NCBI GenBank assembly: GCA_963777605.1
Contig: CAVZRV010000030.1
Coordinates: 384,001 to 448,000 of the forward strand
Source of the DNA: an uncultured Acidobacteriota bacterium
GTDB lineage: Bacteria > Acidobacteriota > UBA6911 > RPQK01 > JAPXNP01
Direction: 5' to 3'
Length of the DNA: 64,000 nt
Shown: piece after piece, positions 1 to 53,367 of the stretch
Layout: each line of letters begins with the position of its first letter
Position numbering within the stretch: position 1 is the first letter of the stretch
Translations under genes and position numbers: made by a program
Notes under the pieces: model-generated
The model's database searches: none
What the model was told of the DNA's origin: nothing
What the model saw: only the letters and a program-made list of their open reading frames with translations

Positions 1-383
1 CCGCAACACTCCACTTCGTTTTCAGGGAACTGCCGTCGCCGCACACCATCTCGACGTCACACTCATGTGGAAACGACTCGATTTCACGAAGGCGCTTCAG
101 CCAATCCGGCATCGTCTCTTGCTGTCGCGTCGCAATAAGCTGATCCAGCCTCCGATCGGCGATTAAATCGGAGGGCCGGCGCAGAAGCTGCGACAGGGCG
201 GGATTGGCAAGCAGAACTCGGCCCTCCGGCTCGATGAGCAGAGTCGGGAAAACGGCCCCAGAGACCTTTTGTGCGTCGGCCACCGGGATCCAGGATCCTC
301 TCTCGTGATCCGTTGGGGCATTACCGTCGCGAGAATCCAGGTTCCCGCGCCACGGGCCCCCTGGCTGATCCTTTGTCATGCAT

Positions 384-548
384 TTAGCAGTTGCCGTCGC
401 GGCAGGGCGGTGGGGGCGGCGGCGTCGGACAGCAGTCCTCGGTCTGTACAATCGGGTCCTGGCTCTCCGTTCCAGAGCCGGTCTGCGTGTCTGTCAGTGC
501 TACGAACGACAGGGCCGTCAAAGTCGCAACCAAAATCCATTCAACCAT
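384..548 (-). CDS. Small secreted Cys/Pro-rich peptide (54 aa, MVEWILVATLTALSFVALTD...EDCCPTPPPPPPCRDGNC), putative signalling peptide precursor, copy 1
   Basis: GGAG RBS before ATG at 548; hydrophobic N-terminus; near-identical paralog at 38041-38208 with synonymous changes; homology ends at the stop codon. Confidence 0.8.
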   Translation of the reverse strand: MVEWILVATLTALSFVALTDTQTGSGTESQDPIVQTEDCCPTPPPPPPCRDGNC

Positions 549-617
549 CTCCACACTCCCTTTCTGTCCATCGGACCCGCGCAGACTAGACCCGGCACAC
601 GCTTGGGACCAAAAATT

Positions 618-665
618 TTCAGAAGGACCGAACACTTTCGGCTCGAGGTGTTCGGAATGTCCGAA
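618..665. promoter_or_regulatory. Tandem operator 1 (TTCAG-N5-CCGAA at 618; TTCGG-N5-CCGAA at 651) in the divergent peptide/7-TM promoter
   Basis: Boxes 33 bp apart; -10-like TAGTCT (minus) and TAAGCT (plus) each 29 nt from the nearer box; same architecture at four other sites. Confidence 0.8.
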
Positions 666-725
666 AAGAGGTGACCGGAAAGGAATTCTTGATCTAAGCT
701 GGAAGTCGCGAATAGACTTCAGGGG

Positions 726-1466
726 ATGTCGCTGTCTGAGATCCCAATGTTGTTCAACACGGGGCTGTTACTGGTTTTGGTTTTTCGGATGGTGAGCAAA
801 GGATTGGTTTCGGATTACCGCGTTTTCTTCGGCTATCTGGTCTTCGAGACCATTGCAACCCTGGTTTCGGAGTGGATCATCCTCCAATTTGGATTGAATT
901 CGACCGCGTACCGAATTGACTACTACACGTATTCGACTCTGACTCCGGCCTTCCAAATCTGGGTGCTCATCGACCTGGCTCGCCGCAACTTCCGGACCGG
1001 CAGCGAGTCTCCCCACGCCACCAACGTGCTCGCGGTGCTCTCGATCCTCGTGGGGCTTCCCGTGTTCGTGTTCATCGGGTTCTTACCGGTCTACGGCTAC
1101 GATCGGGTTCAGGCCGTCAGTCTGGTCTTTCAAATGGTCCTGACCCTGCTGATCTACCTCTACCTGCTGGAACGACGGGACATTGACCCGGGTAAGAACC
1201 TCAAGGCTATTCTGGGTGGGATGACCCTGATGGTCACCTGCCAGTCGTTGAATTTCGTGAGCTATTTCCAGGACCGAATCGGATTTGAGGTCTTCCAGTT
1301 CGGAGTCCCGGCGATCTACGGTGTGGCCCTGGTGATCTTCACCGTCGGACTTTGGAACTACGCACCGGCAAGTGCGTCGGCGGAACAGCGCACGCTGAAC
1401 CTGGGATTACAGCGGAGTGTCCGTTTAATGCTGCACCTTCTCTACGAGAGGCCATCCAGCCAATGA
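726..1466 (+). CDS. 7-TM integral membrane protein (246 aa), putative peptide receptor, copy 1
   Basis: About seven hydrophobic segments, no cytoplasmic catalytic domain; paralog at 37124-37864. Confidence 0.85.
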   Translation: MSLSEIPMLFNTGLLLVLVFRMVSKGLVSDYRVFFGYLVFETIATLVSEWIILQFGLNSTAYRIDYYTYSTLTPAFQIWVLIDLARRNFRTGSESPHATNVLAVLSILVGLPVFVFIGFLPVYGYDRVQAVSLVFQMVLTLLIYLYLLERRDIDPGKNLKAILGGMTLMVTCQSLNFVSYFQDRIGFEVFQFGVPAIYGVALVIFTVGLWNYAPASASAEQRTLNLGLQRSVRLMLHLLYERPSSQ

Positions 1467-1885
1467 GATTCGATGACTACATTGAAATCTACTTCCTGGG
1501 ACTGGTCGCCTGTGTGGCCGTCGTTGCGGCCTACTACCACCTGGCTCGGATCGAGATCCGGGAATCGGATCGCAAGAAGCTCAGTGAAGCCAACCTCAAT
1601 CTGGAAGTGATCCTGATCATGCTGGAAGCGCCCGACACGCAGTACCTGATGTCAAAATCGGGCAGAGGAAAGTTCCTCTTCACGGAGTATTCCCGCTCGC
1701 TCAGGGCAGACGTCCTGGGGCTCATCCGGACACGGGAACTGGGTCTGAAGTCCTACGGACTGATTGCCGCCTTCTACGCCACCTATTGGGTAATGTCCTG
1801 GAAGAGCAAACTCTCGGCCAGTCTCAACGACATTCGCGTGCTCTCCGCGCTGGAACTCAGGCTGGTTCGGGCTCTAGTGTTCTGA
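1463..1885 (+). CDS. 140-aa membrane-anchored hypothetical protein, copy 1
   Basis: ATGA overlap with 7-TM stop; N-terminal TM helix; same length as paralog 36705-37127. Confidence 0.85.
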   Translation: MRFDDYIEIYFLGLVACVAVVAAYYHLARIEIRESDRKKLSEANLNLEVILIMLEAPDTQYLMSKSGRGKFLFTEYSRSLRADVLGLIRTRELGLKSYGLIAAFYATYWVMSWKSKLSASLNDIRVLSALELRLVRALVF

Positions 1886-2452
1886 GTCGTCAGAGAACAG
1901 CGCACACCAGTTGACCAGGTAGTGCTGAACCAGCTTCTCCACGTAGCCCGGGCACCCTTCCGCCTTGAGGAAGAAATGGTAGGTGGCGTCGAGGTAGTTC
2001 TGCTGCCACCACAGGCCTTCACTGGGAGGATGGCCGTTTTCCAGGCGGACCAGACAGCGATCGAGCAGGAAGTCGCTCAAGTTCTGATACATCACGATCC
2101 GGCACGACCGGCCACGAACCTCAAACAGGGAACCCCCTTCAGCCCCGGAGAGCCGGATGACTTCTCCGAGGCGAAATTCCTGAAGCCGCCTCAGGTAGAG
2201 GAGTTCGCTGTCCTCGGCGCGGGTTCCTGACGATTCTGTCGGCCAGACTGCCGAGATATCGGCCTCGAGCACCCCGAGCACCCGGAACAGCGACTCCAGG
2301 TTCAGCCGGTAGGCTCCGGCCTCCATCGAGGCGTAGGAACTCGTGGGAATCCCGGCCCGCTCCGCAAGCTCCCTCAAGCCCACATTTCTCATCAGGCGCA
2401 GTCTTCGAAGCCGTTGTCTGACAAAATCATTCACCGATTGCCCGCAATCCAT
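1874..2452 (-). CDS. XRE/Cro-family HTH transcriptional regulator with uncharacterised C-terminal domain (192 aa), copy 1
   Basis: RLRRLRLMRNVGLRELAERAGIPTSSYASMEAG HTH_3-like pattern; start set by alignment to 36138-36716. Confidence 0.85.
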   Translation of the reverse strand: MDCGQSVNDFVRQRLRRLRLMRNVGLRELAERAGIPTSSYASMEAGAYRLNLESLFRVLGVLEADISAVWPTESSGTRAEDSELLYLRRLQEFRLGEVIRLSGAEGGSLFEVRGRSCRIVMYQNLSDFLLDRCLVRLENGHPPSEGLWWQQNYLDATYHFFLKAEGCPGYVEKLVQHYLVNWCALFSDDSEH

Positions 2453-2486
2453 GGCTATTTCCCCCTTGGCATCACTTTGTCGGGAA

Positions 2487-2515
2487 ACGTTATCGACGGG
2501 TTTCGGTCCTGTCAA
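2487..2515 (-). promoter_or_regulatory. Sigma70-type promoter of XRE copy 1
   Basis: TTGACA-N17-TAACGT; same hexamers conserved upstream of all three XRE copies while spacers diverge. Confidence 0.75.
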
Positions 2516-2599
2516 TACCCCAAAAGAGCATCTCGAGCGATCATCCTCTCAGACGCCACACGACGCCCCCTCGTGAAACGGCCGGAGCAGACCAGAGTG

Positions 2600-2647
2600 T
2601 TCGGGTATTCCGAACACTTTTGCCCCGAAGTGTTCGGACATTATGAA
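2600..2647. promoter_or_regulatory. Tandem operator 2 upstream of the Rhs operon
   Basis: TTCGG-GTATT-CCGAA (2600) and TTCGG-ACATT-ATGAA (2633), 33 bp apart; TACATC 29 nt downstream. Confidence 0.75.
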
Positions 2648-2736
2648 AATTCTTGGGGGCGAGAACCACGTTATGGTACATCCCGCTCGAGCGACGGGTT
2701 TCCTCAAACCGAAACTTTCGATCGGGAGAGTCTGTC

Positions 2737-3432
2737 ATGAAAGTGAAGCCAGTGCTTGTGCTTCCCGCCTTGTTTCTCCTCACCGCCCTGCTTCCGGCCC
2801 AGTCGGTTGCCGACCAGATTTTGGAACGCTACGGCGGTCGGGCCGTCGTATCCGAACTCGGCCGCTTCGAGGTCACAGGACACTTTGAAGGCACCAAGGT
2901 GGCAGAGGCTTTCACGCTTCGGGCCGCGGGTGAGCGAAGCCACTTCGAGACGCCGACGTTTCGCGAGATACGCGACGGGTCGATTGGTCAAGCGGCCCCT
3001 TCCGATCGCGCGCTGGCCGCTCCGAGAAGACGGATCGTCGGTACCGACGACCGGTTGATTCTCCCCATGAGTCTTTTGTCACGTCTGGCCTCATTTCGCT
3101 ATGCGGGCCTCGAGCAGGGAAAGTACTGGTTCGAAACCCAGATCGACAAGAAGGAATTCATCGGCTACGACCAGCCGCCGGTTCAGGTCGAACTGACATT
3201 TGACGCCACGACGTTGCTCTTACAGAGCGCGCGATTCATCGACCCCAACCGCGGGTCGGACTTCGCACTGACCTACGAGGAGTACACGCTCGTTGGCAAA
3301 GTGCCGGTTGCGACGCGCATCGTCCGCTGGATGAACGAGGAGCCGATTCATGCCCTGCGGATTGAGACGGTCAGTTTCAGTCCGACCTTCACCGACGAGG
3401 ACCTGGCTCTGGTTGAGGAAGGAGGCCGCTAA
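2737..3432 (+). CDS. Secreted beta-rich protein (231 aa), possibly LolA-like fold, translationally coupled to Rhs
   Basis: Signal peptide MKVKPVLVLPALFLLTALLPAQ; C-terminal pattern ELTFDATTLLL...TYEEY..VGKVPVATRIVRW; TAATG overlap; truncated paralog at 35530-35843. Confidence 0.7.
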   Translation: MKVKPVLVLPALFLLTALLPAQSVADQILERYGGRAVVSELGRFEVTGHFEGTKVAEAFTLRAAGERSHFETPTFREIRDGSIGQAAPSDRALAAPRRRIVGTDDRLILPMSLLSRLASFRYAGLEQGKYWFETQIDKKEFIGYDQPPVQVELTFDATTLLLQSARFIDPNRGSDFALTYEEYTLVGKVPVATRIVRWMNEEPIHALRIETVSFSPTFTDEDLALVEEGGR

Positions 3433-6400
3433 TGAACACCAGCACACGGTACCTCCTTGCGCTTTTGGCCAGCTGTTTGACCTTCTCAGCCGTCTTGGCC
3501 GACGACCCGTATGAAGCGGAAGAGAACAAGAACGGCTATCAGTTGACTTCAACCTACGGTGGGTTCCTCTCCTCGGGAGGCCTCTACTCGCTCAACGTCA
3601 ATCAATATACCGGCGGTTACAACCTGCACATTCCGATTCTATCCCTTGCAGGCCGGGCCGGGCATGATCTCAACATCACGGCCACTTACAACAGCAAGCA
3701 GCTCTGGCTCGAGCCGTGGCAGATGTACACCTGGGAGGGATACCGCTACGGATTCAATATCAACAGCTATTTGCCCGGACCTCACTCGGGACGTTGGCTA
3801 CTGAACATCTGGCCCTCCATCAAAGAAGAGGTCCCAAACAGTCTCTACTACTTCACCACTCCAGACGGCGCCGTTCACGTTCTGAACCAGAACGTCAGCA
3901 ACCGGTTCTTGGCCGCTGACGGCAGCTACATCGCCTACATTCCCTCTACCAAGAAGGTGGTCTACCCCGACGGCAGCTTCTGGGACTTCAGCGTCTACGA
4001 CACCCAGCACAAGGTGCATCATGTCGATCGCAACGGCAACCGCATCACTTACGTCTACAGCCAATACTCCGGATCGCTGTGGCGCCCCACCCAGATCATC
4101 GATACCCTGGGACGAGAGATCAACTTCGTTTATGGAGACTCGGAGTGGTCCTATGTCACCGAAATTCAGATCCTGAACCGGGACGGTACGGGCCATCAGA
4201 CCTTGACCTACGAGCTTGACTATTCGAGTGTCCCGGTCGACTTGGACGCCATTGAGTACCACAACGGTTCCTGGCGGAAGTACTACGGCACGATCTATGG
4301 GCTCTCCGATTATCGCGTGCTGACGTCGATCGGGCTGCCGAATGGGACGGGTTACTCGATCACCTACGCGACGGATCACGTCAAGAACGAGGCCGAGCAG
4401 TGGGAGGATGTGAGTACCTATCAGCTGGACGAACTCACGTTGCCGACCGGGGCTACGGTCTCCTTCGACTATGCGACACCCCCGGTTCCGACCGCCAATC
4501 AAACCACAACCGCAATTTGGGGCGAGCAACTGAAGTATGCGGAGCGGGTCAGCCGCAGGGTCTCGAGCGTAACCGTCGATCCACTGGACGGCTATCCCTT
4601 CGCGACCACCTACAGTTTCGTCCGGGACTCCGACAACAACATTACGCAAACCACGGAGACGAAACCGGACGGCAGCAAAGTGGTCACTGATTTCTACGGT
4701 TCCACGGAAAACAGCGCGTTACTTCGGGAGGTGCAGACCGTCTATGACACGAACGGGACGACCGAGCTTCGCAGTTCAGAATCCGGCTGGGCCGACACGA
4801 GCTATGGTAAGCGCATCTCGGTCAGTTTGACCGAGGAGCGGTCCGCCTTGGCCGCAACACCGAGTTATGTTCGGACCGAAAGGACCTACGACTACTTCGG
4901 CCGCCTGACTCGGGAGAAGGTCCTGGACGGGGATCGCATTAACTACTACTACCCGCTTCGCGCCCGGCATCTCGAATACGATACCTTCGACTGGACTCGC
5001 TATATCAGTAAACTCCGCCGCGTCGAGGAGACGGCCTGGAACGGCACCTCCGACGAGTACGTGGTCCAAGCGACGGTGTACAACTACGACCAATACGCAC
5101 TGACCGATCGAACGAGCCCCGCCCAGCACGACCCGACCTTTACGACCAGTTACACGAACCGCGGAAATGTGACCCAGGTCCAGGCATACCTTGTGTCCGA
5201 AAATCGCTGGATCACCACCCAGACCCACTACGACATCCTCGGAAACCCGGTTCAGGTCACCGACCCGTTGAGTCATTCAACGACGACCACGTATGCGGCC
5301 GGCACAAATAACCACTACGCCTTTCCGACCCGCGTGACCAACGCCCTCAGCCAATACACCGACATCGTCTTCGACTTCTATACGGGTCTCCCCTTTCAGG
5401 TTACCGATCCCAACGGCCAATCCAGTACGTTCACCTACGATATCTACAATCGACTTATCCAGAAGAACACGCCCGGTGGGGGCCAGGAGAATTACGCCTA
5501 CTACGATCAGTACAATACGGGGATTTACCGTCTTAAGTCGGAAAAGACCGGAAAGATCACCTCCACGGACTCCGCGACCCAGACGATGTACTTTGACGGG
5601 ATCGGCCGGCTGGTGCGGACGGAGCTGGAACAGGATGTGGGAGGGCCGGTCATCATCGACCGTCAATACGAACTCTGCACCTGTAGCGGCAAGGTCGCTC
5701 GAGAGTCGATGCCCTATCGAAGCGGTGAACCGGTCCTCTGGACGGAAAAGCGCTATGACGGGCTCGGCCGGGTTCTCAAGGTCATTCCCCCGGACGGGAG
5801 CGCATCCTCCAACAACACCGAGTATCGGTACAAGTTCGGGGAAAGTCCCCTCTCGGGCCTTCACGGCGCCTCGTTTGTCGGCGTCTTCGACGGCACCCGC
5901 CGGGGCCGGGTCTACGTCTATGGGATGGACGGCGACCTGATCGAAGTGGGAGAGGACGCCAAGTACTCCGATCTGAGCTACACCTACGCGACGCAGTACG
6001 AGAAGCGGCCCGATACGAACTACCTGACCAACGGCCGACGCCGCGACGGCGTCCTGATCAACTATGCCCGCACCACCTATCGGGACATCATTCAGGGCTC
6101 TCAGACCCGGACCTTCCGGTCCGACAGCTTGGGACGCCTGGTCTCCGAGCTTCATCCCGAAAACGGCACAACGTCGTACACATACGATGACGCCGGAAGG
6201 CTTGCGACCCGCACGGATGCCCGCAACTGGGTGACCAACTACTCCTACGACAATATCAATCGGCCCACCGGGCGGACCTACTCGGGTGATGGCGGTGTGA
6301 CGCCGTCGGCGACCTACACCTACGATCAAGGCACCTACGGGATCGGCCACATGAGCAGCTGGTCGTCGGCGAACAACGTCTCGGGCGGAGCCGAGTTCGA

Positions 6401-9131
6401 TGTCGCGGGCCGCACGACCCGTCAGTGGCTGTCGCTTCCGTCGAACTCCCAGGAAGAAGTGAACTATACGTACAATCTCGCCGGCCAACGCACGTCGTTC
6501 GAGTATCCGAACAACGAGACGTTGACTTACAGCTACAACGGGATCGGCCAGTTGACCGATCTGACCTCGAGCTGGGTCGACGCCCAGCATCCGGCCAATC
6601 TCCTCTCGTCGATTAATTACAACTCGGCCGGACAACCCGACTATGCCCTCCTGGGGAACAATCGGGAGCTTCGGCGGGGATACCATCCCGTGACCGGACA
6701 ACTCCAGCATCACGAGGTCCGAAACATCGACATTCCCTTTGCGAATGCCGGCTTCGAATCGGGATCGGGCGGCGATGCCTCCGACTGGTCGGAGATCCTC
6801 GGGTCGGCCAGAAGCGACGAGGCGGCCCTAACCGGCAAGTACTCGTTGAAGCTGGCCTCAGGATCGCTGGCCCTGGCCTCGGCAAGTAGCTACATCGCCG
6901 TCCAGGGCAGTACCACCTACACCCTGTCCGGCTACCTCTACCTGTCCTATTACCACTCGGGCAACGTCTACATCGATCCCGACGGCGGAAATGCCCAGGG
7001 GCAGGCTTTTACGAACGCCCAAGCGTTTGCCGACACGTCGAAAGTCGGCACGTGGCAGCGCGTCTCGACGACGTTTACGACCGCGGCCGGGACGACTGGA
7101 GTCAAGGTCCGCGTGGTCCACGACGGAGGCCAGTCCGGAACCTCGGCCGTCTTCTATGCCGATGAGCTGTCGATTACCGCCGGCACGACGGCTCCGGCCG
7201 CGGCCTGGACTTACGATTACCGGGACGGTGGGGTGGCGGTGGCGAACTCGAGCTTTGAAGCCGGCTCATCGACCAATGCCGTAGGCTGGAATCAAACGAC
7301 CTACGCTTACCGGGACGGAGCTCGGGCGAAGGCGGGAGCGTACTCGATGAAACTGGGCGGCTATTCGACGACTGTCGCGACCTTGTCGAACTACGCCAAG
7401 GTCCGGGGCTCGACCCACTATCGCCTTTCGGGCTGGATCTATATCAGCTCCTACGGGAGCGGCAACGTCTACCTGGACCTCAACGACGGCAACGGCGAAG
7501 GCCAGAACTTCACCGACCTCAACCTCCAGGCGAATACCGGAACCGTCGGAAGTTGGCAATACGTCACCGGAACGTTCGACACGGCGGCCTCGACGGCCGG
7601 CGTCAAGGTGCGCTGTGTCAAAGACGGCGGCTACACCACAACCGCCTACTTCGACGGGATCGAAATCCGGGAGGAGTCGGCGGACTTCGGCACCCCGCAA
7701 AACGGCATGATCCAGGCGATCCAGGACCAGGTCAATCCCAACTACTCGGAGACCTATCACTACGACGAACTCTACCGGCTTGACTCGGCGGAGACCAGTG
7801 TCTGGAGTCTGTCCTGGGTCTACGACCGTTACGGCAACCGGTTGAGCCAGTCGGGATCGGGTGGCGTGCCGACCGAGACCCTCACGATCAGTACCACTAC
7901 AAATCGGGTGAGCGGCTGGACGTACGATGCCGCAGGCAATGTCACCAACGACGGCACCCACACCTATGCCTATGATGCCGAAAACCGCTTAATCAGCGTC
8001 GATGCGGGAGTCACCGCGACCTACGCATACGGCCCCAACGGTGAACGGGTCTGGAAAATTGCCGGAGGCGTGACAACCTACTACTACTGGGGGATCGGCG
8101 AGAAGGTCTCGGGCTCCTGGACCAAGTTCTTCGTCTCGGGCCTGGGTGGTAAGCTGGTCGAGTACAGCAGTTCGACGACGAAGTTTTTTGTGACCAATCA
8201 TCTCGGCAGTGTGGCGGCGCGCATGGATGTCAGTGGAACCCTCAGTGAAACCTACCGCTATCTTCCGTTTGGAGAGCTTTTTGCGGGCTCCGCAACCACC
8301 CACGAGTTCACCGGCAAGGAGCGGGATCAGGAATCAGGGCTCGACTACTTCGGGGCACGGTATCTGGCGTCCAATCACGGCCGGTGGATGAGTGTTGATC
8401 CGGTCTTTCGGAAGGCCCATGACCCACAATCTCTAAATAGGTATGCTTATTCCCGGAACGATCCCATTGGCAAGTACGATCCAAACGGCGAGGAATGGCG
8501 CATCGTGGACTGCGGAGTTGCCGACACGGGTACCCGCGTAATTGGCCTTCCGGGTTCTACTCAAAAAGAAGAATATTACTGCATATACAATTGGTATCCC
8601 GATGCCCCACCGCCAACAACACCGCCCGCGAAACCTCCAACCAAGGAACAGGATCCCGTTAGAAGGATTCCATGGAAGGAGGTCGAATCGGATTGCATAT
8701 CCCAATGGGCAAAGGATCTGCTCGCACCCTACTTTCCTGATTTAGACTTGGACAGCGTACCGGTTGTCCCGGTCCCGTGGAGTTATCCTGGACTTGTCAC
8801 GCTTGGTGAAACAGACAGATGGCGTGGGATCACCCTCTTTCCCATTGTCTTCTACGATCCTTTGAAGCCTGGAACAGATCCTGGCAGTGACGCTGGCCTG
8901 TGGCTGTTCGCCCATGAATTCACACACTTGGAGCAAATCGAGAACTATGAATTCTTGGGCAGGGAGTGGTTCTATTACACGTACGTCACCTGGTGGGCAT
9001 GGAACGTTTTTCACAATGGTGGATACTCCGATATAGGATTTGAAGAGTGGGCAAACCAGAATGCTAGTGAAATCATGGTGAAAGTGCGGGAGCAGTTAGC
9101 CGGAGGAGAAGGCACCCGTGTTTGTCGGTAA
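3432..9131 (+). CDS. Rhs/YD-repeat polymorphic toxin (1899 aa): Sec signal peptide, two carbohydrate-binding-like domains in the core, C-terminal HExxH (DUF4157-like) domain
   Basis: Many YD repeats; Rhs-associated core FTGKERDQESGLDYFGARY...W.S.DP...NRYAY..NDP...DPNG; C-terminal FAHEFTHLEQ. Confidence 0.92.
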   Translation: MNTSTRYLLALLASCLTFSAVLADDPYEAEENKNGYQLTSTYGGFLSSGGLYSLNVNQYTGGYNLHIPILSLAGRAGHDLNITATYNSKQLWLEPWQMYTWEGYRYGFNINSYLPGPHSGRWLLNIWPSIKEEVPNSLYYFTTPDGAVHVLNQNVSNRFLAADGSYIAYIPSTKKVVYPDGSFWDFSVYDTQHKVHHVDRNGNRITYVYSQYSGSLWRPTQIIDTLGREINFVYGDSEWSYVTEIQILNRDGTGHQTLTYELDYSSVPVDLDAIEYHNGSWRKYYGTIYGLSDYRVLTSIGLPNGTGYSITYATDHVKNEAEQWEDVSTYQLDELTLPTGATVSFDYATPPVPTANQTTTAIWGEQLKYAERVSRRVSSVTVDPLDGYPFATTYSFVRDSDNNITQTTETKPDGSKVVTDFYGSTENSALLREVQTVYDTNGTTELRSSESGWADTSYGKRISVSLTEERSALAATPSYVRTERTYDYFGRLTREKVLDGDRINYYYPLRARHLEYDTFDWTRYISKLRRVEETAWNGTSDEYVVQATVYNYDQYALTDRTSPAQHDPTFTTSYTNRGNVTQVQAYLVSENRWITTQTHYDILGNPVQVTDPLSHSTTTTYAAGTNNHYAFPTRVTNALSQYTDIVFDFYTGLPFQVTDPNGQSSTFTYDIYNRLIQKNTPGGGQENYAYYDQYNTGIYRLKSEKTGKITSTDSATQTMYFDGIGRLVRTELEQDVGGPVIIDRQYELCTCSGKVARESMPYRSGEPVLWTEKRYDGLGRVLKVIPPDGSASSNNTEYRYKFGESPLSGLHGASFVGVFDGTRRGRVYVYGMDGDLIEVGEDAKYSDLSYTYATQYEKRPDTNYLTNGRRRDGVLINYARTTYRDIIQGSQTRTFRSDSLGRLVSELHPENGTTSYTYDDAGRLATRTDARNWVTNYSYDNINRPTGRTYSGDGGVTPSATYTYDQGTYGIGHMSSWSSANNVSGGAEFDVAGRTTRQWLSLPSNSQEEVNYTYNLAGQRTSFEYPNNETLTYSYNGIGQLTDLTSSWVDAQHPANLLSSINYNSAGQPDYALLGNNRELRRGYHPVTGQLQHHEVRNIDIPFANAGFESGSGGDASDWSEILGSARSDEAALTGKYSLKLASGSLALASASSYIAVQGSTTYTLSGYLYLSYYHSGNVYIDPDGGNAQGQAFTNAQAFADTSKVGTWQRVSTTFTTAAGTTGVKVRVVHDGGQSGTSAVFYADELSITAGTTAPAAAWTYDYRDGGVAVANSSFEAGSSTNAVGWNQTTYAYRDGARAKAGAYSMKLGGYSTTVATLSNYAKVRGSTHYRLSGWIYISSYGSGNVYLDLNDGNGEGQNFTDLNLQANTGTVGSWQYVTGTFDTAASTAGVKVRCVKDGGYTTTAYFDGIEIREESADFGTPQNGMIQAIQDQVNPNYSETYHYDELYRLDSAETSVWSLSWVYDRYGNRLSQSGSGGVPTETLTISTTTNRVSGWTYDAAGNVTNDGTHTYAYDAENRLISVDAGVTATYAYGPNGERVWKIAGGVTTYYYWGIGEKVSGSWTKFFVSGLGGKLVEYSSSTTKFFVTNHLGSVAARMDVSGTLSETYRYLPFGELFAGSATTHEFTGKERDQESGLDYFGARYLASNHGRWMSVDPVFRKAHDPQSLNRYAYSRNDPIGKYDPNGEEWRIVDCGVADTGTRVIGLPGSTQKEEYYCIYNWYPDAPPPTTPPAKPPTKEQDPVRRIPWKEVESDCISQWAKDLLAPYFPDLDLDSVPVVPVPWSYPGLVTLGETDRWRGITLFPIVFYDPLKPGTDPGSDAGLWLFAHEFTHLEQIENYEFLGREWFYYTYVTWWAWNVFHNGGYSDIGFEEWANQNASEIMVKVREQLAGGEGTRVCR

Positions 9132-9597
9132 CGTAAAACGGGCGTTTCTAGTGGCACTGTGCCTAAACGGGATAGCTGGCTGCTTGCCAGAAGGCCCTCC
9201 GGTCTGCAGGGAGTACTTCAGTGCATTGCCCTCTGCGAGACGCCCTTTCAGCGAGTACTCGATGAACGACCAAGTTGAGATATTCATCTGCGGACAAGCA
9301 ATGCACCCACCGTATATGCCGATTGCCACACTCGCGGGTCATGGATGTGAAATTCTCCCATTGCTCCGAGACCGATTGGTACAGACTGATGATGATCGGG
9401 TTCGTGAGGCGCTCATAACCGTGGTTTGGATTGTTGGTCAGGAACGTTGCGACCTACGGAAAAGAACGGACATCACAGAGGCCGTTCGTACTTCAATCGG
9501 AAGAATGAGATCGGCAGGAGCAAGAAGGATCGCCCTACACAGGCTGCAGGAGATGCTGAATGGGCCGATAACTCACGGGAGAATTCAAGAGAGGTGA
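9118..9597 (+). CDS. Putative immunity lipoprotein
   Basis: Overlaps Rhs 3' end; lipobox-like LNGIAG-C; helical. Confidence 0.65.
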   Translation: MFVGNVKRAFLVALCLNGIAGCLPEGPPVCREYFSALPSARRPFSEYSMNDQVEIFICGQAMHPPYMPIATLAGHGCEILPLLRDRLVQTDDDRVREALITVVWIVGQERCDLRKRTDITEAVRTSIGRMRSAGARRIALHRLQEMLNGPITHGRIQER

Positions 9598-9619: not shown

Positions 9620-11179
9620 ATGCGAGGGCTCCTCCGGGAGTCGCGGTTTTGGATCGATTCTATCGACAACGATGGGACTGGTGCAGGCCAAAACTTCACG
9701 GACCTCAATCTCCAGGCGATCCAGGACGAGGTCAATCCCAACTACTCGGAGACCTATCACTACGACGAACTCTACCGGCTTGACTCGGCGGAGACCAGTG
9801 TCTGGAGCCTCTCCTGGGTCTATGACCGCTACGGCAACCGGCTGAGCCAGTCGGGATCGGGCGGCGTACCGACCGAGACCCTGACGATCAGTACCACGAC
9901 AAATCGGGTAAGCGGCTGGACCTACGATGCCGCCGGCAATGTCACGGGCGACGGCACGCACACCTATGCGTACGATGCCGAAAACCGCTTGATCACCGTC
10001 GATGCGGGAGTCACCGCGACCTACGGCTACGGCCCCAATGGCGAGCGGGTCTGGAAGGTTGCCGGAGGGGTGACGACCTACTATTACTGGGGGATCGGCG
10101 AGAAGGTTTCGGGCTCGTGGACCAAGTTCTTCGTCTCGGGCCTCGGTGGTAAGCTGGTCGAGTACAGCAGTTCGACGACGAAGTTTTTTGTCACCAATCA
10201 TCTGGGCAGTGTGGCGGCGCGCATGGATGTCAGCGGAACCCTCAGCGAAACCTATCGCTATCTCCCGTTTGGAGAACTGTTTGCCGGTACCGCAACAACC
10301 CACGAGTTCTCCGGCAAGGAAAGGGATCAGGAATCGGGCCTCGATTACTTCGGGGCGCGGTATCTGGCGTCAAGTCACGGGAGATGGATGAGCGTGGATC
10401 CTGCGTTGGGCAATACGGCGAACCCGCAGCGCCTAAATCGCTATTCATATGTTGGGAACGCACCAACGTCACTTGTCGACCCGAATGGCATGCAATGGAC
10501 GCTAGTAGACTGCGGAATTATGGAGAATTCGGTCAAAATCACATATGAAACACCGGAGGAAGCGGGAAGCGAATCGAGCTGGTCAGGCGGGAAGAAATAC
10601 TATTGCATTTACAGTTGGACCGCCGAGCCTCCGCCCCCGAATCCTCCCGTTCCTCCGCCGACGAAACAACAGACCGGTGAGACGCCCGCGTTGAAGGCGC
10701 TTTCGTTCTCGGCGATGCAGAACATCGTGAAAGCGAATAATCTCTCCGGGCAAAGTGATGAGTTGATTCTCTGCCAAGCTTATAGAGAAAGCAAATTCCG
10801 GCCATGGGCGGTCAACGGGAAGACCGGAGCAAGCGGTCTTCTTCAGATCCTGCCTGCAGCGGCGCTAGACATCTGGAGTGGGGAGCCTGGGGGATTTGGA
10901 GAAAACGGGTTCTCGGCCGAGACAATCAACGGGTGGTTCTCCCCCGGCGGAAGAATCTTTCAGCCTGGATTCAATATTGCCACGGGGACTGCCTATTTGG
11001 GGTGGCTGATCTCTGATTGGTCGTCGGTAGGAGGAAGCGTCTGGCAAGCGCTCGACAGATACAGCCACGGTGCCAAGGGCTACGCTGACCAGATAGTGAG
11101 TTGTGAACAAGAACTGAAGGAGGCACTTGAAAACGGTTCGGATCCAATGCCAGTTCTCAAGAAGGTGCTCCCCCAATGA
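9620..11179 (+). CDS. Orphan Rhs-CT module with lytic transglycosylase (SLT)-like toxin domain
   Basis: 9711-~10400 repeats 7711-~8400; after DPNG, SLT motifs RESKF, GASGLLQI, NIATGTAYL, ALDRY; no credible N-terminus. Confidence 0.85.
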   Translation: MRGLLRESRFWIDSIDNDGTGAGQNFTDLNLQAIQDEVNPNYSETYHYDELYRLDSAETSVWSLSWVYDRYGNRLSQSGSGGVPTETLTISTTTNRVSGWTYDAAGNVTGDGTHTYAYDAENRLITVDAGVTATYGYGPNGERVWKVAGGVTTYYYWGIGEKVSGSWTKFFVSGLGGKLVEYSSSTTKFFVTNHLGSVAARMDVSGTLSETYRYLPFGELFAGTATTHEFSGKERDQESGLDYFGARYLASSHGRWMSVDPALGNTANPQRLNRYSYVGNAPTSLVDPNGMQWTLVDCGIMENSVKITYETPEEAGSESSWSGGKKYYCIYSWTAEPPPPNPPVPPPTKQQTGETPALKALSFSAMQNIVKANNLSGQSDELILCQAYRESKFRPWAVNGKTGASGLLQILPAAALDIWSGEPGGFGENGFSAETINGWFSPGGRIFQPGFNIATGTAYLGWLISDWSSVGGSVWQALDRYSHGAKGYADQIVSCEQELKEALENGSDPMPVLKKVLPQ

Positions 11180-12747: not shown

Positions 12748-13184
12748 GTTTCCCGGCGGCCGTCAAGGTCTATCTGTGCACGGTGCCCTGCGACATGCGG
12801 CGCTCCTTCGACGGACTGTCGATGATGGCCGAGCACGTGATCGGCTGCAATCCCTTCTCGGGTCACCTGCTGGTGTTCTGCAATCGCCGCTCGGATCGGG
12901 TGAAGATCCTGTACTGGGACCGGGACGGATGGGCGATCTGGTACAAGCGGTTGGAGGCGGGAACGTTCGCCTTTCCCTTTGCCGAGACGGGACGCAAGGA
13001 GATCGCGGCCTGGGAGCTGGGCGTGCTGCTGGAGGGGATCGATCTGGGTCGGGGCCGACGGCGCAAGCGCTACGCTTTGGCGGGGGAAACGGAAGCGGCG
13101 CGGCAAGGGGATGAAAAGGATTGCCGGGAGAGGGCATTTAGGGGTGGACAAAAGCCGAGAGCTCTGCTATGCTCTCGGGTATGA
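12741..13184 (+). CDS. tnpB: IS66 accessory protein TnpB
   Basis: DMRRSFDGL, VFCNRR, KILYWDRDG, KRLEAGTF motifs. Confidence 0.92.
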   Translation: MLSFPAAVKVYLCTVPCDMRRSFDGLSMMAEHVIGCNPFSGHLLVFCNRRSDRVKILYWDRDGWAIWYKRLEAGTFAFPFAETGRKEIAAWELGVLLEGIDLGRGRRRKRYALAGETEAARQGDEKDCRERAFRGGQKPRALLCSRV

Positions 13185-13541
13185 CAAACGTTTCCTCCAC
13201 CACGCTGCGCCAACAGATCGAGCAGATCCAAACCGAGCTGGCGGCTCTGGGGCCGATCCACCCCGGGAGCCTCTCCGAACAGTACAACGTCTGCGGGACG
13301 CCGGGCTGCCGCTGCAAGGATCCCGACGACCCCCAAAAGCACGGGCCCTACTACCAGTTGAGCTTCACCTGGCGGGGCAAGAGCAGCTCGCGGTTCGTCA
13401 AACAGGATCGGCTCGAGGCGACCCGCCACAAGGTGGCCAACTACAAACGAGCTGCGCGACCTGGTCAACCGGTGGGTGGACCTGGCCGTCGAATTGGAGC
13501 GGGCCGAACGCGAGGAAGCCAAAGCGCGTCATGGAGCTTGA
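13181..13541 (+). CDS. DUF6788-like Cys-motif protein inside IS66 (one frameshift near 13450)
   Basis: GSLSEQYNVCGTPGCRC...HGPYYQL; continues after a 1-nt shift as LRDLVNRWVDLAVELE. Confidence 0.7.
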
Positions 13542-15063
13542 TCCCACCCGGCTGCCGGCCGATCCGGGGGCGCTGCGGGCCATCATCCTGGGACTGGTCG
13601 AAGATCTGGAGACGAGCCGGCGTCGACTGCGCCAGGCCCAACACCTGTTGGAACAGCTGCTGCGTCACCGCTACGGAGCACGGCGGGAGCGGGTGGACGA
13701 GAACCAGCTGTTCTTGTTTGCCGCCGGGATCGTCGAAAGCGGCAAGGATCGGACACCCCCGGCCAGAGAAGAGACCCCCGCGCCGAAACCGCAAAGGAGA
13801 GGCCATGGTCGCCGGCCGCTGCCGGCCTCGCTCGAGCGCCGCCGGGTGGTCTACGACCTCGGGGAGGACGAACGGCACTGCCCCGAATGCGGGGATCCCC
13901 TGCACCACATCGGAGAGGAGACGAGCGAACGGCTCGAGTACGTCCCGGCCTGCTTTCAGGTGATCGAGGAATCGTGTCAAAAGTACGCCTGCCGGAAGGG
14001 ATGCACGGTGGTGACGGCCGACAAACCGCGGGCGCCGATCGACAAGGGAAGGCCGGGGCCGGGACTGCTGGCCCAGGTGGCGGTCTCGAAGTACGCCGAC
14101 CATTTGCCGCTGTATCGTCAGGAAGGCATCTATCGGCGGCAGGGCGTGGAGTTGTCGCGCCAGACCCTGTGCGGGTGGATGCGGCAATGCGCCGAACTCG
14201 TCGATCCTTTGTATGAACGGATGAAGCGTGAGGTCCTGAGCTCGAAGGTGGTCGGAACCGACGATACGCCGGTCAACGTCCTCGACCGGAGCCGATCGCG
14301 GACCCGGGTGGGTCGGATCTGGACCTACGTGGGGGACGACCGGCATCCTTACACGGTCTACGACTACACGCCCAATCGCAGCCGGGCCGGACCGCAAGCG
14401 TTCCTCGACGACTTCACCGGATATCTGCAGGCGGACGCCTACGCCGGTTACGATCAGCTCTATCAGGATCCCAGACGCCCGGTCGTTGAGGTGGCCTGCT
14501 GGGCACACGCCCGGCGCAAGTTCTTCGAGGCCCAGTCGTCGGACGTGATGCGTTCGACGGTTTTACTGGCCTACATCCGGCTGTTGTACGACGTCGAACG
14601 GGAGGCCCGAAAGGCCAGGCTGACGGCAAAGCAACGTGATCGGTTACGGCGCCGGCGCTCGGGGCCGATTCTCGACGACATCCACGCCTACCTGGAAAAG
14701 GAGCGGGAACAGGTCTTGCCGAAGTCTCCGATCGGGGTGGCCATCGGCTATGCGCTCTCGAACTGGCGGGCGTTGGTCCGCTACCTGGAGGACGGGGATC
14801 TCGAGATCGACAACAACCCGGCCGAGCGCAGTCTGCGAGGGATCGCCATCGGCCGCAAGAACTGGATGTTCTACGGTAGCGACAACGGCGGGCGGACCGG
14901 AGCGGTCCTGACCAGCCTCATCACCACGTGCCGCAGGCACGACATCGACCCCTTCGACTATTTGCGCGACATCTTCGAGCGTATCGGCGAGCATCCGCAC
15001 ACCCGGCTCGACGAACTCCTGCCCGATCGTTGGCAGCCTGCCCGGACGACCGCAACCTCCTGA
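13531..15063 (+). CDS. tnpC: IS66 DDE transposase TnpC
   Basis: Zinc ribbon CPECG; KYADHLPLYRQ, DDTP, LQADAYAGY, CWAHARRKF, IDNNPAERSLR, GRKNW. Confidence 0.95.
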   Translation: MELDPTRLPADPGALRAIILGLVEDLETSRRRLRQAQHLLEQLLRHRYGARRERVDENQLFLFAAGIVESGKDRTPPAREETPAPKPQRRGHGRRPLPASLERRRVVYDLGEDERHCPECGDPLHHIGEETSERLEYVPACFQVIEESCQKYACRKGCTVVTADKPRAPIDKGRPGPGLLAQVAVSKYADHLPLYRQEGIYRRQGVELSRQTLCGWMRQCAELVDPLYERMKREVLSSKVVGTDDTPVNVLDRSRSRTRVGRIWTYVGDDRHPYTVYDYTPNRSRAGPQAFLDDFTGYLQADAYAGYDQLYQDPRRPVVEVACWAHARRKFFEAQSSDVMRSTVLLAYIRLLYDVEREARKARLTAKQRDRLRRRRSGPILDDIHAYLEKEREQVLPKSPIGVAIGYALSNWRALVRYLEDGDLEIDNNPAERSLRGIAIGRKNWMFYGSDNGGRTGAVLTSLITTCRRHDIDPFDYLRDIFERIGEHPHTRLDELLPDRWQPARTTATS

Positions 15064-17379: not shown

Positions 17380-18168
17380 GGTATTGTCAACTTAACGATG
17401 AGATGGCGATACAGGTCCCCAAAATCCGCTTTATTAGGAGATGGACGTCACCTGTTGCCAACACTCGAAAGCACGGTCCCGGAGGAGTCGATGGTGGCAC
17501 GAGCGAAGGAGGTGTCGCCCCACTCGAAACAGGTTCTGAACGGCTGCGTGAATGCTCAGGAATCGCTGGGCTTGCCCTACGGACTTGAATCGTCGCATCT
17601 GGCGTTCTCGCTGTCGAGTCGGCTGGTGTGATACCTCAACCCGGTTGTTCTCGTATTGCCCAGTTGCATGGGGAATCGTTGGAATCAGTTCTCGATGAGC
17701 GGCAGTAGCTTCCCAGCTTGTCGGTGACAAGCCTGTTGAGACCAGATCTTTGTGGGCTTTCAGGAGCTTACGAAAGAACCGCTTGGCGGCCTGTCGATCT
17801 CGTCTGTTCTGCAGCAGAATGTCGATCGTGTCTCCGTCTTGGTCGGCAGCTCGCCAGAGGTAGTCTCGTTCTCCACGGATCGTGACGAAGAGTTCATCGA
17901 GATGCCAAGTGTCCCCCAGTCGACCCTCTTTGTTCCTCAGCCTCCGCGCGTAGACCGTCCCGAACTTGCGACACCAGTACCGCACGGACTCGTACGAAAC
18001 GGCAATTCCGCGCTCAGCCAAGAGGCCCTCGACATCTCGGAAACTGAGACTGAAGCGGTGATACAACCAGAAGGCGTAACTAATGATCGGAGATGGAAAG
18101 CGATGTCGGGTGTAGCTCGGGGTGTTCATCCCGCCATTCTCGCCGACGGCCGTTAATTTGACGGTGCC
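17380..18168 (-). mobile_element. IS6-family insertion sequence
   Basis: Imperfect 18-bp IRs GGTATTGTCAACTTAACG / GGCACCGTCAAATTAACG around a single transposase. Confidence 0.88.
17434..18129 (-). CDS. IS6-family DDE transposase (short compensated frameshift in the middle)
   Basis: RHRFP..II, LSFRDVE.LLAERG, WHLDE, YLWRA.D, NNRVEVSHQP. Confidence 0.88.
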   Translation of the reverse strand: MNTPSYTRHRFPSPIISYAFWLYHRFSLSFRDVEGLLAERGIAVSYESVRYWCRKFGTVYARRLRNKEGRLGDTWHLDELFVTIRGERDYLWRAADQDGDTIDILLQNRRDRQAAKRFFRKLLKAHKDLVSTGLSPTSWEATAAHRELIPTIPHATGQYENNRVEVSHQPTRQRERQMRRFKSVGQAQRFLSIHAAVQNLFRVGRHLLRSCHHRLLRDRAFECWQQVTSIS

Positions 18169-22950: not shown

Positions 22951-22998
22951 TTCGGCACAGCCGAACACTTCAGGCCGGAAGTGTTCGGAATATCCGAA
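22951..22998. promoter_or_regulatory. Tandem operator 3 upstream of the subtilase
   Basis: TTCGG-CACAG-CCGAA (22951) and TTCGG-AATAT-CCGAA (22984); TAAGGT on minus strand 29 nt away. Confidence 0.8.
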
Positions 22999-23089
22999 CG
23001 TTTTCGCATCTTCGGCAATAGGGAATCGGTAGTTGACTTGGATTTCGATGGAGGTCCCTCGAAAGAACCAGTGGAGTCCTTCTGGGCCC

Positions 23090-23150: not shown

Positions 23151-23727
23151 ATGAGTGAGAGAGAATCGGTGAACGACTTCATCCGGCAGCGGCTTCGTCG
23201 ACTGCGTCTTTCCAAGAACGTGGGATTGAGGAAGCTTGCCGACCGAGCCGGAATCCCCTCGAGTTCGTATGCCTCGATGGAGGCCGGAGCGTATCGCCTG
23301 AACCTGGAGTCCTTGTTTCGAGTGCTCGGCGCGCTCGAGGCCGATATCACGGCGGTCTGGCCGTCGGAAGCTTCCAGAGCCCGCGCCGAGGACAGCGAAC
23401 TCCTCTACCAGCGACAGCTCCAGGAATTTCGCTTGGGAGAAGTGATCCGACTGTCCCAGGCGGAGGGAGGCGCTTGTTCGAGGCCCGCGGCCGGTCCTGC
23501 CGGATCGTGATGTACCAGAACCTGAGTGACTTCCTGCTCGATCGATGCCTCGTTCGCCTGGAAAACGGAGATCCTCCGAACCAGGGCCTGTGGTGGCACC
23601 AGGATTTCCTCGACCCACCTACCATTTCTTCCTCAAGGCGGAAGGGTGCCCGAGTTTCGTGGAGAAGCTCGTTCAGCACTACCTGGTCAACTGGTGCGCG
23701 CTGTTTGCGGAGGAATCAGGCGACTAG
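23151..23727 (+). pseudogene. XRE regulator copy 2 (two 1-bp frameshifts, possibly sequencing errors)
   Basis: Three overlapping ORFs reconstruct the 192-aa paralog. Confidence 0.8.
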
Positions 23728-23978
23728 CGCCCGGACCAGCCTGAGTTCCAGCGCGGAGAGCACGCGAATGTCGTTGAGACTGGCCGAGAGCTTGCTCTTC
23801 AAGGACATCACCCCGTAGGTGAGGTAGAAGGCGGCAACCAGCCCGTAGGATTTCAGTCCCAACTCCCGTGTCCGGATGAGTCCCAGGACGTCCGCCCGGA
23901 GCGAGCGGGAGTACTCCGCGAAGAGAAACTTTCCTTTGCCCGACTTTGACATCAGGTATTGCGTGTCGGGTGCTTCCA
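23716..23978 (-). pseudogene. 3' fragment of the 140-aa membrane protein, copy 2
   Basis: LEAPDTQYLMSKSGKGKF...LVRALVA; homology lost beyond ~23978. Confidence 0.8.
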
Positions 23979-24143
23979 GACTCGACTGTGATGAGCCATT
24001 AACATTTGTCAACAGCCGCCTAATGGGGGGCACCGCGGTGCACAATCTCCCCGGGGCATTTGTGGCAATAGCGGGCGCCTCCGACTTCGCGTTGCGCCGT
24101 CTGGCCGGCTGTTGACATCAGATGCGGACAGTCCCCGACCGAT

Positions 24144-53360: not shown

Positions 53361-53367
53361 CCTATTC

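Follow-up and report, generated by a model that had tools for sequence, protein, structure and literature searches.

A recurrent cassette of a small peptide, two membrane proteins and an XRE regulator in Acidobacteriota as a candidate for kinase-free peptide sensing

Here, we analyzed a stretch of 64,000 nucleotides (nt) from an uncultured Acidobacteriota bacterium (assembly GCA_963777605.1, contig CAVZRV010000030.1, positions 384,001 to 448,000 of the forward strand; hereafter, the window), close to the left end of which lies a compact cassette of four genes. A gene for a small peptide on the minus strand is followed by a divergent gene for a membrane protein with seven predicted transmembrane (TM) helices (the 7-TM protein), by a second plus-strand gene for a membrane protein of 140 amino acids (aa) and by a convergent minus-strand gene for an XRE-type regulator, all within 2.1 kb. 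Operator-like palindromes are found between the peptide and 7-TM genes (O1) and again between the XRE gene and candidate cargo genes (O2). The four genes form a self-contained regulatory unit that belongs to one Acidobacteriota order and is built from families without prior description: three of its four protein families are unnamed, and the fourth joins a recognizable XRE helix-turn-helix (HTH) to a C-terminal domain without relatives. No description of the cassette, the peptide motif or the 7-TM family could be found by full-text searches of the main articles. Coordinates of all features are shown in Table 1.

Copies of the cassette and conservation of the gene linkage

When positions 1-3500 were compared with the whole window by blastn, positions 383-2987 matched 38209-35593 in inverted orientation (82.6% identity over 2624 nt) and positions 1622-2439 matched 23979-23164 (84.6% identity), which bears out the claim of an initial annotation, made from the letters of the window, that the unit recurs intact at a second site and partially at a third. 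Its inventory of two intact copies and one partial copy stands for the window; it has to be extended by three further copies elsewhere in the same 6.73-Mb genome of 53 contigs (C31, C44 and C13), and the XRE gene of the partial copy proved to be frameshifted. The six copies share 82-85% nucleotide identity and four of them are decayed or partial: besides the partial copy of the window, C31 has a frameshifted XRE gene, the 7-TM gene of C44 is interrupted by stop codons and C13 retains only the XRE gene and operators. The only intact copies are the two full ones in the window. Between these two, the ratio of nonsynonymous to synonymous substitution rates (dN/dS) was 0.04 for the peptide gene, 0.16 for the 7-TM gene, 0.11 for the 140-aa gene and 0.14 for the XRE gene, which indicates purifying selection on each of the four. 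Inside the unit, neither the open reading frames (ORFs) of the window nor a family scan revealed a transposase, terminal repeats or a toxin partner.

Conservation was then assessed in 41 genomes of the order, including this genome and an unpublished one (G018). A profile search found the 7-TM protein in 16 of them, with one or two matches per genome elsewhere rather than six (13 of the 15 other genomes carry one). In all nine loci retrieved from other genomes with the 7-TM protein, tblastn found the 7-TM gene, the 140-aa gene and the convergent XRE gene in this order, and the full trio is also kept by 17 of 20 loci retrieved with the XRE regulator, all of which come from Acidobacteriota metagenome-assembled genomes or isolates. 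The three incomplete loci comprise one cut by a contig end, one with the XRE gene only and one with the XRE gene and a partial 140-aa gene. Altogether, the trio occurs in this arrangement in 23 distinct genomes of the same taxonomic order, and the 140-aa gene adjoins the 7-TM gene in all trio loci. A divergent peptide ORF ending in Cys-Cys and proline (CC-Pro) accompanies the trio in 22 of the 23; the single genome without it has an IS200-like transposase at that spot beside the 7-TM gene.

Clustering of the ORFs flanking the 20 XRE-seeded loci showed that only the trio families recur in 17-19 of them. The next annotatable family was present in five related loci, and one further cluster, with members in eight loci, consisted of antisense ORFs inside the XRE gene. 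Because only the trio families emerged from this clustering, the cassette has neither a conserved cargo nor a conserved exporter, kinase or sigma factor. More specifically, the flanks of the 20 loci contain no conserved kinase, tetratricopeptide repeat (TPR) regulator, LytTR gene or extracytoplasmic function (ECF) sigma factor; no conserved exporter, C39 peptidase, ABC transporter, processing enzyme or Opp-type importer; and no conserved redox or metal protein. They are ordinary and lineage-specific, for example with an aspartate-kinase-like ORF (a name that we read from the sequence). The initial annotation had expected 7-TM homologs in other genomes to have peptide and XRE genes as neighbors, and within the order this expectation survived the searches described above, as did its claim that TPR regulators and ECF sigma factors are missing. 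Its statement that there is no histidine kinase is true of the conserved module but not of this genome, in which a truncated PAS+HisKA fragment (window positions 2-451) abuts the first peptide gene and the C31 copy has a hybrid of PAS, histidine kinase and receiver domains behind an O2-type operator.

The peptides of the two intact copies are 96% identical at the amino acid level. A longer, 83-aa reading of the peptide ORF (reaching position 635) was considered and rejected as an over-extension that is not conserved, because copy 2 shifts frame just upstream of the MVEWILV start. With a regular expression, 20 distinct small ORFs with a C-terminal CC-Pro motif could be identified divergently upstream of 7-TM genes, and variants of the form ACC[VP]EPWPC..C were found by eye in two more genomes. 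Each of the 20 begins with a hydrophobic segment and continues through a polar linker of variable sequence to a C-terminal Cys-Cys, from which a run of prolines is separated by 0-4 residues; adjacent cysteines are present in all 22 peptides of the core family, and the linker and tail vary. About 30-45 aa remain after the signal segment, ending in CC-polyPro, and putative small-residue cleavage sites seemed plausible by eye in several peptides. No family in Pfam, NCBIfam or PADLOC matched the peptide (here and below, PADLOC was used for the proteins of the window). In four loci of other genomes (L009, L010, L011 and L017), the 5' leader of the peptide gene contains a hairpin in which the Shine-Dalgarno sequence GGAGGTT pairs with an upstream AACCTCC, with energies of -14.4 to -25.7 kcal/mol and z scores of -1.9 to -2.7 in three of the four. 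This hairpin, which may provide translational control of the peptide, is not present in the copies of the genome studied here.

More distant relatives were examined in a phylum-wide sample of 401 genomes, again with this genome and G018 included, of which 43 had a 7-TM match at E <= 1e-5. By profile search of the 30 loci returned, eight plus one partial locus had the full trio, two had the 7-TM protein with a 140-aa homolog and the rest had the 7-TM protein only. Nineteen loci without homologs of the 140-aa and XRE proteins were taken as the distant set; distant cassettes are also present in complete genomes of one family (f46). In 15 of these 19 loci, a small co-directional ORF ends no more than 260 nt upstream of the 7-TM gene, and its product has a classic signal peptide in front of a short mature part that is Pro/Cys-rich. 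The background for such ORFs, determined at 6553 control anchors of these loci, was 9.2% (603 anchors), which gives a binomial probability of 8e-13, a value that overstates the significance because related genomes are not independent. The order in these loci is peptide, 7-TM protein and partner: in at least 14 of the 19, the next gene encodes a partner of similar architecture, with one N-terminal TM helix plus about 170 helical residues. An XRE-like regulator of about 270 aa could be found by clustering within 3.5 kb in 8 of the 19 loci; its HTH matches were weak (E 5e-6 to 6e-3, below cut-offs) and the local HTH profile did not detect it. On the basis of these results, association with small exported peptides is a general feature of the 7-TM family, and its link to an XRE regulator is general only in part. 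The distant peptides often lack the Cys pair and some contain no Cys at all. One locus (L059, positions ~799-1424) has four tandem copies of a 39-aa signal-peptide ORF ending in GLCTAPPPTPHGLRK, and two others (L061, 1062-1382; L063, 1201-1425) have single precursors with three to four internal Cys-free repeats, DGPLPGPTIPPAA and GPWPFPDDSAGGNI, respectively. In this layout, the precursors of the three loci resemble repeat-type pheromone precursors.

Protein families of the cassette

The 7-TM protein of the window had no match in Pfam (E <= 0.1), NCBIfam or PADLOC (E <= 0.05), and no credible Pfam match was found among 68 aligned members of its family (E <= 0.01). Seven relatives were present in a word-indexed database of 5.8 billion proteins, and an exhaustive profile search of 1.84 billion representatives extended the family to 83 representatives at E <= 0.001, nearly all of 215-275 aa, the exceptions being about 20 shorter fragments and one 1498-aa match. 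A locus pattern scan with the seven-row 7-TM alignment returned 115 pattern matches and no relative.

An AlphaFold2 model built from the 68 sequences had a predicted local distance difference test score (pLDDT) of 93.1 and a predicted template modeling score of 0.85; it supersedes a model from only seven sequences (pLDDT 59.8). It consists of seven TM helices and a C-terminal amphipathic helix 8 (residues 2-17, 25-48, 53-84, 90-111, 117-142, 149-174, 180-201 and 214-233). Seven Lys and Arg residues lie in the loops inside and one in the loops outside, and the predicted topology is N-out/C-in with helix 8 in the cytoplasm. Most of the strongly conserved positions (23 of the top 30) fall in the cytoplasmic half, among them W203/P207 and the G149-x-N151 motif with which helix 6 begins; the periplasmic side is variable. 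Polar residues are conserved in or near the membrane, including N151 (97% of sequences), R14 and Y55, together with E142-R-R-D in the close subfamily. The best rows of a Foldseek search of the PDB (E from 0.17) were mostly G-protein-coupled receptors (GPCRs) and microbial rhodopsins, and the top 50 rows of a wide search with VIA-align were all GPCR-type 7-TM bundles, one of them a designed GPCR-like fold. Helix 7 (residues 180-201 of the 239-aa form, EVFQFGVPAIYGVALVIFTVGL) contains no lysine to which retinal could be bound, and assignment to the microbial rhodopsins was rejected for this reason. The model is consistent with a receptor-like seven-helix architecture with its N-terminus outside, its C-terminus inside and a helix 8.

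The 140-aa protein, the gene of which is translationally coupled to the 7-TM gene, starts with a TM helix. This is followed by a helical cytoplasmic part of about 70 aa, in which an (A)PD motif is invariant, and by a second hydrophobic helix, and the C-terminus is amphipathic. It belongs to no Pfam, NCBIfam or PADLOC family (only a sub-threshold LGT match, 14.8 versus 24.9 bits, was seen), and the protein atlas gave nothing at >= 0.9. Homologs were present in 11 of the 401 phylum genomes, G018 included, all of the same order.

The XRE regulator qualifies as a member of the XRE/Cro-CI group by its N-terminal HTH (PF01381 HTH_3, E 5.1e-6, 26.9 bits versus a cut-off of 23). Its C-terminal domain of about 110 aa has no known relative: no TPR or other domain could be detected in residues 90-192 with Pfam, NCBIfam or a PDB profile search, the last of which matched only the HTH regions of C.BclI, DdrO, SinR and HipB, and only generic HTH clusters were found in the protein atlas. 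NCBIfam antitoxin matches were far below the cut-off (18.2 versus 71.65 bits). A three-chain complex prediction of the 7-TM, 140-aa and XRE proteins gave a score that was not separated from that of a control with the 7-TM protein replaced.

Operators, candidate cargo genes and genomic setting

The window contains 13 occurrences of the half-site CCGAACAC, where 2.65 would be expected and none of 100 shuffles reached 13; this substantiates the tandem operator proposed in the initial annotation. Eleven of the 13 sites lie at the three copies of the window and the other two at 26441 and 28183. Across the 6.7-Mb genome, GTTCGG-N5-CCGAAC is present eight times, seven of them at cassette copies; the operator is specific to the cassette. 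When aligned, O1 and O2 sites share the invariant block CCGAACAC-N12-GTGTTCGG-N5-CCGAA, which we read as two palindromes, one strong and one weak, at a distance of about 33 bp or three helical turns. O1 of copy 1, for example, comprises one good and one weaker TTCGG-N5-CCGAA palindrome at about this distance, and such pairs are spaced by 32-33 bp at every copy in this genome. With no more than one mismatch, the motif was also found in the peptide/7-TM intergenic region of 10 of 17 related loci, in pairs 32 bp apart in three of them. By eye, the weak site abuts TGAAAAT on the peptide-gene side at O1 and on the cargo side at O2, and TTGACA-N17-TAACGT precedes the XRE gene in three copies. In three loci of one genus (L019-L021, positions ~5065-5120), where the 7-TM and 140-aa genes are 200-300 nt apart and do not overlap, a second palindrome pair, also 32 bp apart, lies between these two genes.

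The genes behind the O2-type operators of this genome are candidate cargo genes. In addition to those in Table 1, such operators precede a gene for a reprolysin-like metalloprotease, and genes for a 317-aa protein and a 1582-aa Rhs protein, at the C13 copy. The 285-aa protein faced by O2 of copy 2 is related to cargo 1 in its N-terminal part.

Table 1 Coordinates of cassette genes, operators and candidate cargo genes in the window
Feature	Position	Strand	Description
Peptide gene, copy 1	384-548	-	54 aa, MVEWILV...; hydrophobic signal-like N-terminus, polar linker, C-terminus EDCCPTPPPPPPCRDGNC
Operator region O1, copy 1	609-668 (sites 628-655)		Peptide/7-TM intergenic; CCGAACAC-N12-GTGTTCGG-N5-CCGAAAAG
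7-TM protein, copy 1	726-1466	+	246 aa; database entries start at M8 (239 aa)
140-aa membrane partner, copy 1	1463-1885	+	ATG overlaps 7-TM stop (ATGA)
XRE regulator, copy 1	1874-2452	-	192 aa; 3' end overlaps convergent 140-aa gene by 12 nt
Operator region O2, copy 1	2597-2646 (sites 2597-2637)		Between XRE and cargo genes; perfect palindrome GTGTTCGG-N5-CCGAACAC and weaker site by TGAAAAT
Cargo 1, copy 1	2734-3432	+	232 aa, signal peptide, no known family (Pfam, NCBIfam, PADLOC); 5' part common to copy 2
Cargo 2, copy 1	3432-9131	+	1899-aa RHS-repeat protein (RHS_repeat E 3.3e-17), N-terminal signal-like segment
Operator of partial copy	22961-22999 (site 22961-22988)		Faces subtilase S8 gene (20615-22678, -)
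Partial copy 3	23164-23979	-	Frameshifted XRE and 3' part of 140-aa gene (blastn, genome comparison)
Operator O2, copy 2	35943-35983 (sites 35943/35976)		Faces 285-aa gene (34986-35843, -)
XRE regulator, copy 2	36138-36716	+	84% aa identity to copy 1
140-aa membrane partner, copy 2	36705-37127	-	94% aa identity to copy 1
7-TM protein, copy 2	37124-37864	-	84% aa identity to copy 1
Operator O1, copy 2	37935-37975 (site 37935-37962)		
Peptide gene, copy 2	38041-38208	+	55 aa; C-terminus EDCCPGPPPPPPPCRDGNC

Downstream of copy 1, the 3' core of the Rhs gene (7711-8010) is repeated 2000 nt further on (9711-10010, 93% identity), where it heads a 519-aa ORF (9620-11179) in which an RHS repeat is accompanied by an SLT lytic-transglycosylase domain. 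Together with a small candidate immunity gene in front of it (9118-9597), this ORF looks like an orphan Rhs toxin cassette.

The window starts about 3.5 kb inside a genomic island that begins at a tRNA-Arg and an integrase and carries IS66, IS6 and IS21 elements and a second integrase. To the left of the window, at C30:380387-381912, the tRNA-Arg is followed by a tyrosine-integrase-like gene, an IS3-like fragment and the truncated PAS+HisKA gene; this is probably the edge of the island holding the cassette copies. Between and beside the copies are an IS66-family transposase, an IS6/IS240 DDE transposase, an IS21 IstB ATPase and a phage-type integrase (12979-15063, 17434-18129, 28691-29962 and 38757-40034). 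A simple duplicated element could be ruled out as the origin of the inverted copies because the two integrases flanking them are unrelated. About 1.5 kb from copy 2, a 294-aa ORF (33630-34514, minus strand) has a MopE-type putative copper-binding motif (E 6.4e-9). The right end of the window (49074-63977, minus strand) is occupied by a cluster resembling Ssp/Dnd-type phosphorothioate-linked defence systems. It encodes a 950-aa fusion of a Ser/Thr kinase with an SspF-like part (E 3.3e-33), a 1581-aa DndH/SspH-like ATPase (E 4.9e-60) and three further proteins that are SspG-like, SspB/DUF4007-like and SspC-like, respectively.

Proposed relay, rival explanations and known systems

From the observed gene linkage, selection, architecture and operator pattern, we tentatively favor, with slightly more doubt than belief, a kinase-free relay that would run from the peptide through the 7-TM/140-aa pair to the XRE regulator, Sdp-like in its logic and built from unrelated parts. 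The regulator would bind the palindromes as two cooperating dimers and repress the promoters of the peptide and cargo genes. After export by the Sec pathway, the peptide would be sensed by the 7-TM protein from the periplasmic side, upon which the 7-TM/140-aa pair would capture or inactivate the regulator at its conserved cytoplasmic face without any kinase. This would then switch on the peptide gene, giving positive feedback, together with the cargo genes. In a more ambitious reading, GPCR-like seven-helix receptors would occur throughout the phylum beside their own Sec-exported Pro/Cys-rich ligands, encoded in some loci by tandem genes or repeat precursors; in one order, a 140-aa adaptor would connect them to an XRE regulator without kinase or second messenger, for autoinducing cell-to-cell signaling, and the module would have been copied in this genome to control Rhs toxins and secreted proteases. 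As a whole, we regard it as possible but doubtful.

If the relay is true, a genome-encoded peptide is coupled to transcription through a receptor-like seven-helix protein in an abundant, little-studied diderm phylum of soils and sediments. The small size of the cassette (2.1 kb), its self-contained nature and its defined 21-bp operator make it directly testable, and an orthogonal peptide-responsive switch could be derived from it. For this genome, it suggests a route to the co-regulation of Rhs toxins with secreted proteases.

It should be noted that several observations weigh against the relay or parts of it. No Foldseek match to the PDB was found at E <= 0.001 (best E 0.17), and the VIA-align values (Z 9.8-11.8, root-mean-square deviation 3.4-4.6 A, 166-190 residues aligned) lie in a range, below a Z of about 13, that can be generic for helical bundles; because the fold match is weak, the label 'receptor' rests on architecture and not on homology. 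Within 3.5 kb, 11 of the 19 distant loci have no XRE-like gene, and an hhalign comparison of core and distant proteins gave a probability of 13.6% for the regulators, with little beyond the HTH, and of 2.6% for the partners, so that by sequence the distant partners and regulators seem to be analogous rather than demonstrably homologous to the core ones. A consensus promoter scan of positions 300-2800 found no sigma-70-like site, and because the promoter elements read by eye are weak, 'repressor' rather than 'activator' is a guess. A search of sequencing runs for the sequence listed no RNA run, the matches being 14 DNA or unclassified runs with 5-10% of the sampled words. In other genomes, no operator was seen upstream of the XRE gene or neighboring genes, nor outside the cassette, and cargo control may for this reason be special to the present genome. 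A peptide exported by Sec alone would be confined to the periplasm of a diderm, and cell-to-cell signaling would be an extra step. Finally, near-identical peptides beside 7-TM and XRE proteins that are 16% divergent are unlike insulated ligand-receptor pairs.

Some of the same observations can be read as toxin and immunity. An antimicrobial CC-proline peptide, with the 7-TM and 140-aa proteins protecting the membrane of the producer and the XRE regulator setting expression only, without a signal from the membrane, would fit the order peptide, 7-TM protein, partner of the distant loci, which is that of bacteriocin-immunity operons, and the four tandem peptide genes of L059. The Cys pairs of many peptides could form a disulfide loop, and the cassette is found here among weapons (Rhs proteins, a subtilase and a reprolysin-like protease). 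We nevertheless consider it unlikely that the cassette serves this purpose: neither an exporter nor a C39 peptidase or ABC transporter is conserved next to it, with only a Sec signal the peptide would stay in the periplasm of the cell that makes it, the predominantly cytoplasmic conservation of the 7-TM protein (23 of 30 positions) fits intracellular coupling better than shielding of the outer leaflet, and the fixed linkage to a regulator with an operator in the peptide promoter region suggests feedback. This explanation overlaps with the relay because SdpI is both an immunity and a signaling protein. A periplasmic role is also conceivable, in which the peptide would be a bait or co-sensor for the state of the envelope and its thiol/disulfide, metal or proteolysis state would be read by the 7-TM/140-aa pair to tune the XRE regulator; this would resemble the modulation of envelope stress sensors by CpxP or RseB. 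The frequent absence of the Cys pair from distant peptides, with Cys-free repeats in L061 and L063, counts against such a sensor, tandem-repeat precursors look more like amplified ligand production and no redox or metal protein is conserved nearby. On the other hand, all 22 core peptides retain Cys-Cys and differ in linker and tail, export by Sec with no route across the outer membrane fits periplasmic action, and near-identical peptides of paralogous copies would be expected if specificity between copies were irrelevant. On balance, an envelope sensor seems distinctly unlikely.

We see only a slim chance that the 7-TM protein is an enzyme or transporter that matures, cleaves or exports the peptide, in the manner of AgrB acting on AgrD, rather than its receptor. 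The tight peptide/7-TM linkage across the phylum and the conserved polar residues of the membrane region (N151, R14, Y55 and E142-R-R-D) would agree with this, whereas neither the window protein nor, in Pfam, its 68 relatives match any peptidase or transporter family, and the top 50 structural rows are of receptor type, not CPBP, rhomboid or transporter folds (absence from such a listing is not exclusion). Because the peptides carry ordinary signal peptides, no dedicated exporter is needed, which also counts against it. The presence of six copies, four of them decayed or partial, in a region beside a tRNA-Arg that is full of integrases and of IS66, IS6 and IS21 elements might instead reflect mobility, the cassette being a selfish regulatory or addiction module that maintains the island; the weak similarity of the XRE HTH to HipB/HigA-type antitoxins points in the same direction. 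However, other genomes mostly have a single copy in ordinary lineage-specific flanks, the unit holds no transposase, terminal repeats or toxin partner, and purifying selection acts on all four genes, which leaves this explanation very little credence.

The proposed relay can be compared with several known systems. To our knowledge, bacterial peptide signaling is known almost only from Gram-positive organisms, where it operates via histidine kinases or cytoplasmic RRNPP receptors. The RRNPP systems (PlcR/PapR, Rgg/SHP, PrgX and AimR) are similar to the cassette in having a small precursor gene beside an XRE-type HTH regulator, whose operator is probably carried by the peptide promoter, but the XRE regulator of the cassette has no TPR, no Opp-type importer is linked and two membrane proteins are always present. 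With the Agr system (AgrD/AgrB/AgrC/AgrA), it has in common a Cys-containing peptide with a membrane-targeting N-terminus that is encoded next to polytopic membrane proteins, and would likewise be autoinducing; it differs in having no conserved histidine kinase or LytTR regulator and no AgrB match, and its gene order and peptide are unrelated. HdrRM and BrsRM of streptococci, which are LytTR systems controlling bacteriocin-type genes, include a membrane protein thought to restrain the neighboring transcription factor; their regulator family is different, and these two-gene systems have no cognate peptide gene. In contrast with type II toxin-antitoxin loci (HipB/HigA), there is no adjacent cytoplasmic toxin, the neighbors being two opposite-strand membrane proteins and a peptide gene. 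Class II bacteriocin loci are set apart by a double-glycine leader with a C39/ABC exporter or by a dedicated immunity family; the cassette peptides have Sec-type hydrophobic N-termini instead, and no C39/ABC gene is conserved beside them.

Seven-helix sensors with small transducers are represented by sensory rhodopsin II-HtrII and by Anabaena sensory rhodopsin-ASRT. A Gloeobacter rhodopsin is reported to act on an HTH regulator (PMC11217422). A seven-helix protein with a small partner and, as proposed for the cassette, direct kinase-free coupling to transcription would be the common features; however, the 7-TM protein lacks the helix-7 lysine and any sequence family match, and its likely input is a peptide rather than light. 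Among peptide GPCRs, yeast Ste2 recognizes alpha-factor, the precursors of which carry tandem peptide repeats. The resemblance here consists of predicted N-out/C-in seven helices with a helix 8, of GPCRs as the top structural rows and of repeat precursors in some distant loci, but the similarity is in the range of generic helical bundles (Z <= 11.8; Foldseek E >= 0.17), there is no G protein and no sequence relationship, and we do not claim common descent.

The closest functional parallel appears to be the Sdp system of Bacillus subtilis, which serves in cannibalism toxin signaling. There, SdpI has two partners: SdpC, which it binds on the outside of the cell, and the autorepressor SdpR, which it sequesters on the inside (PMC2910880). 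Like SdpC/SdpI/SdpR, the cassette would combine a neighboring exported peptide with a polytopic membrane sensor holding a small autorepressor, without kinase and with autoregulation. The differences concern the parts. Pfam includes an SdpI family, and the 7-TM protein belongs to no Pfam family (E <= 0.1 for the window protein and E <= 0.01 for the 68 relatives), hence it has no SdpI-family match. The regulator of the cassette is of XRE type, whereas SdpR is of ArsR type, and there is no homology between the two systems; moreover, the cassette has an obligatory second membrane protein of 140 aa and a diderm host and lacks SdpAB-like maturation genes. By this comparison, it is not a member of the SdpI/SdpR families, and the relation would be one of functional analogy only. 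The initial annotation had proposed a kinase-independent analog of peptide signaling in a diderm; the conserved linkage and the absence of a conserved kinase agree with this, but the existence of SdpC/SdpI/SdpR means that such a route is not unprecedented. The logic of the cassette seems to resemble the known membrane sequestration of the Sdp type, and its parts, its host phylum and its receptor-like seven-helix fold are new.

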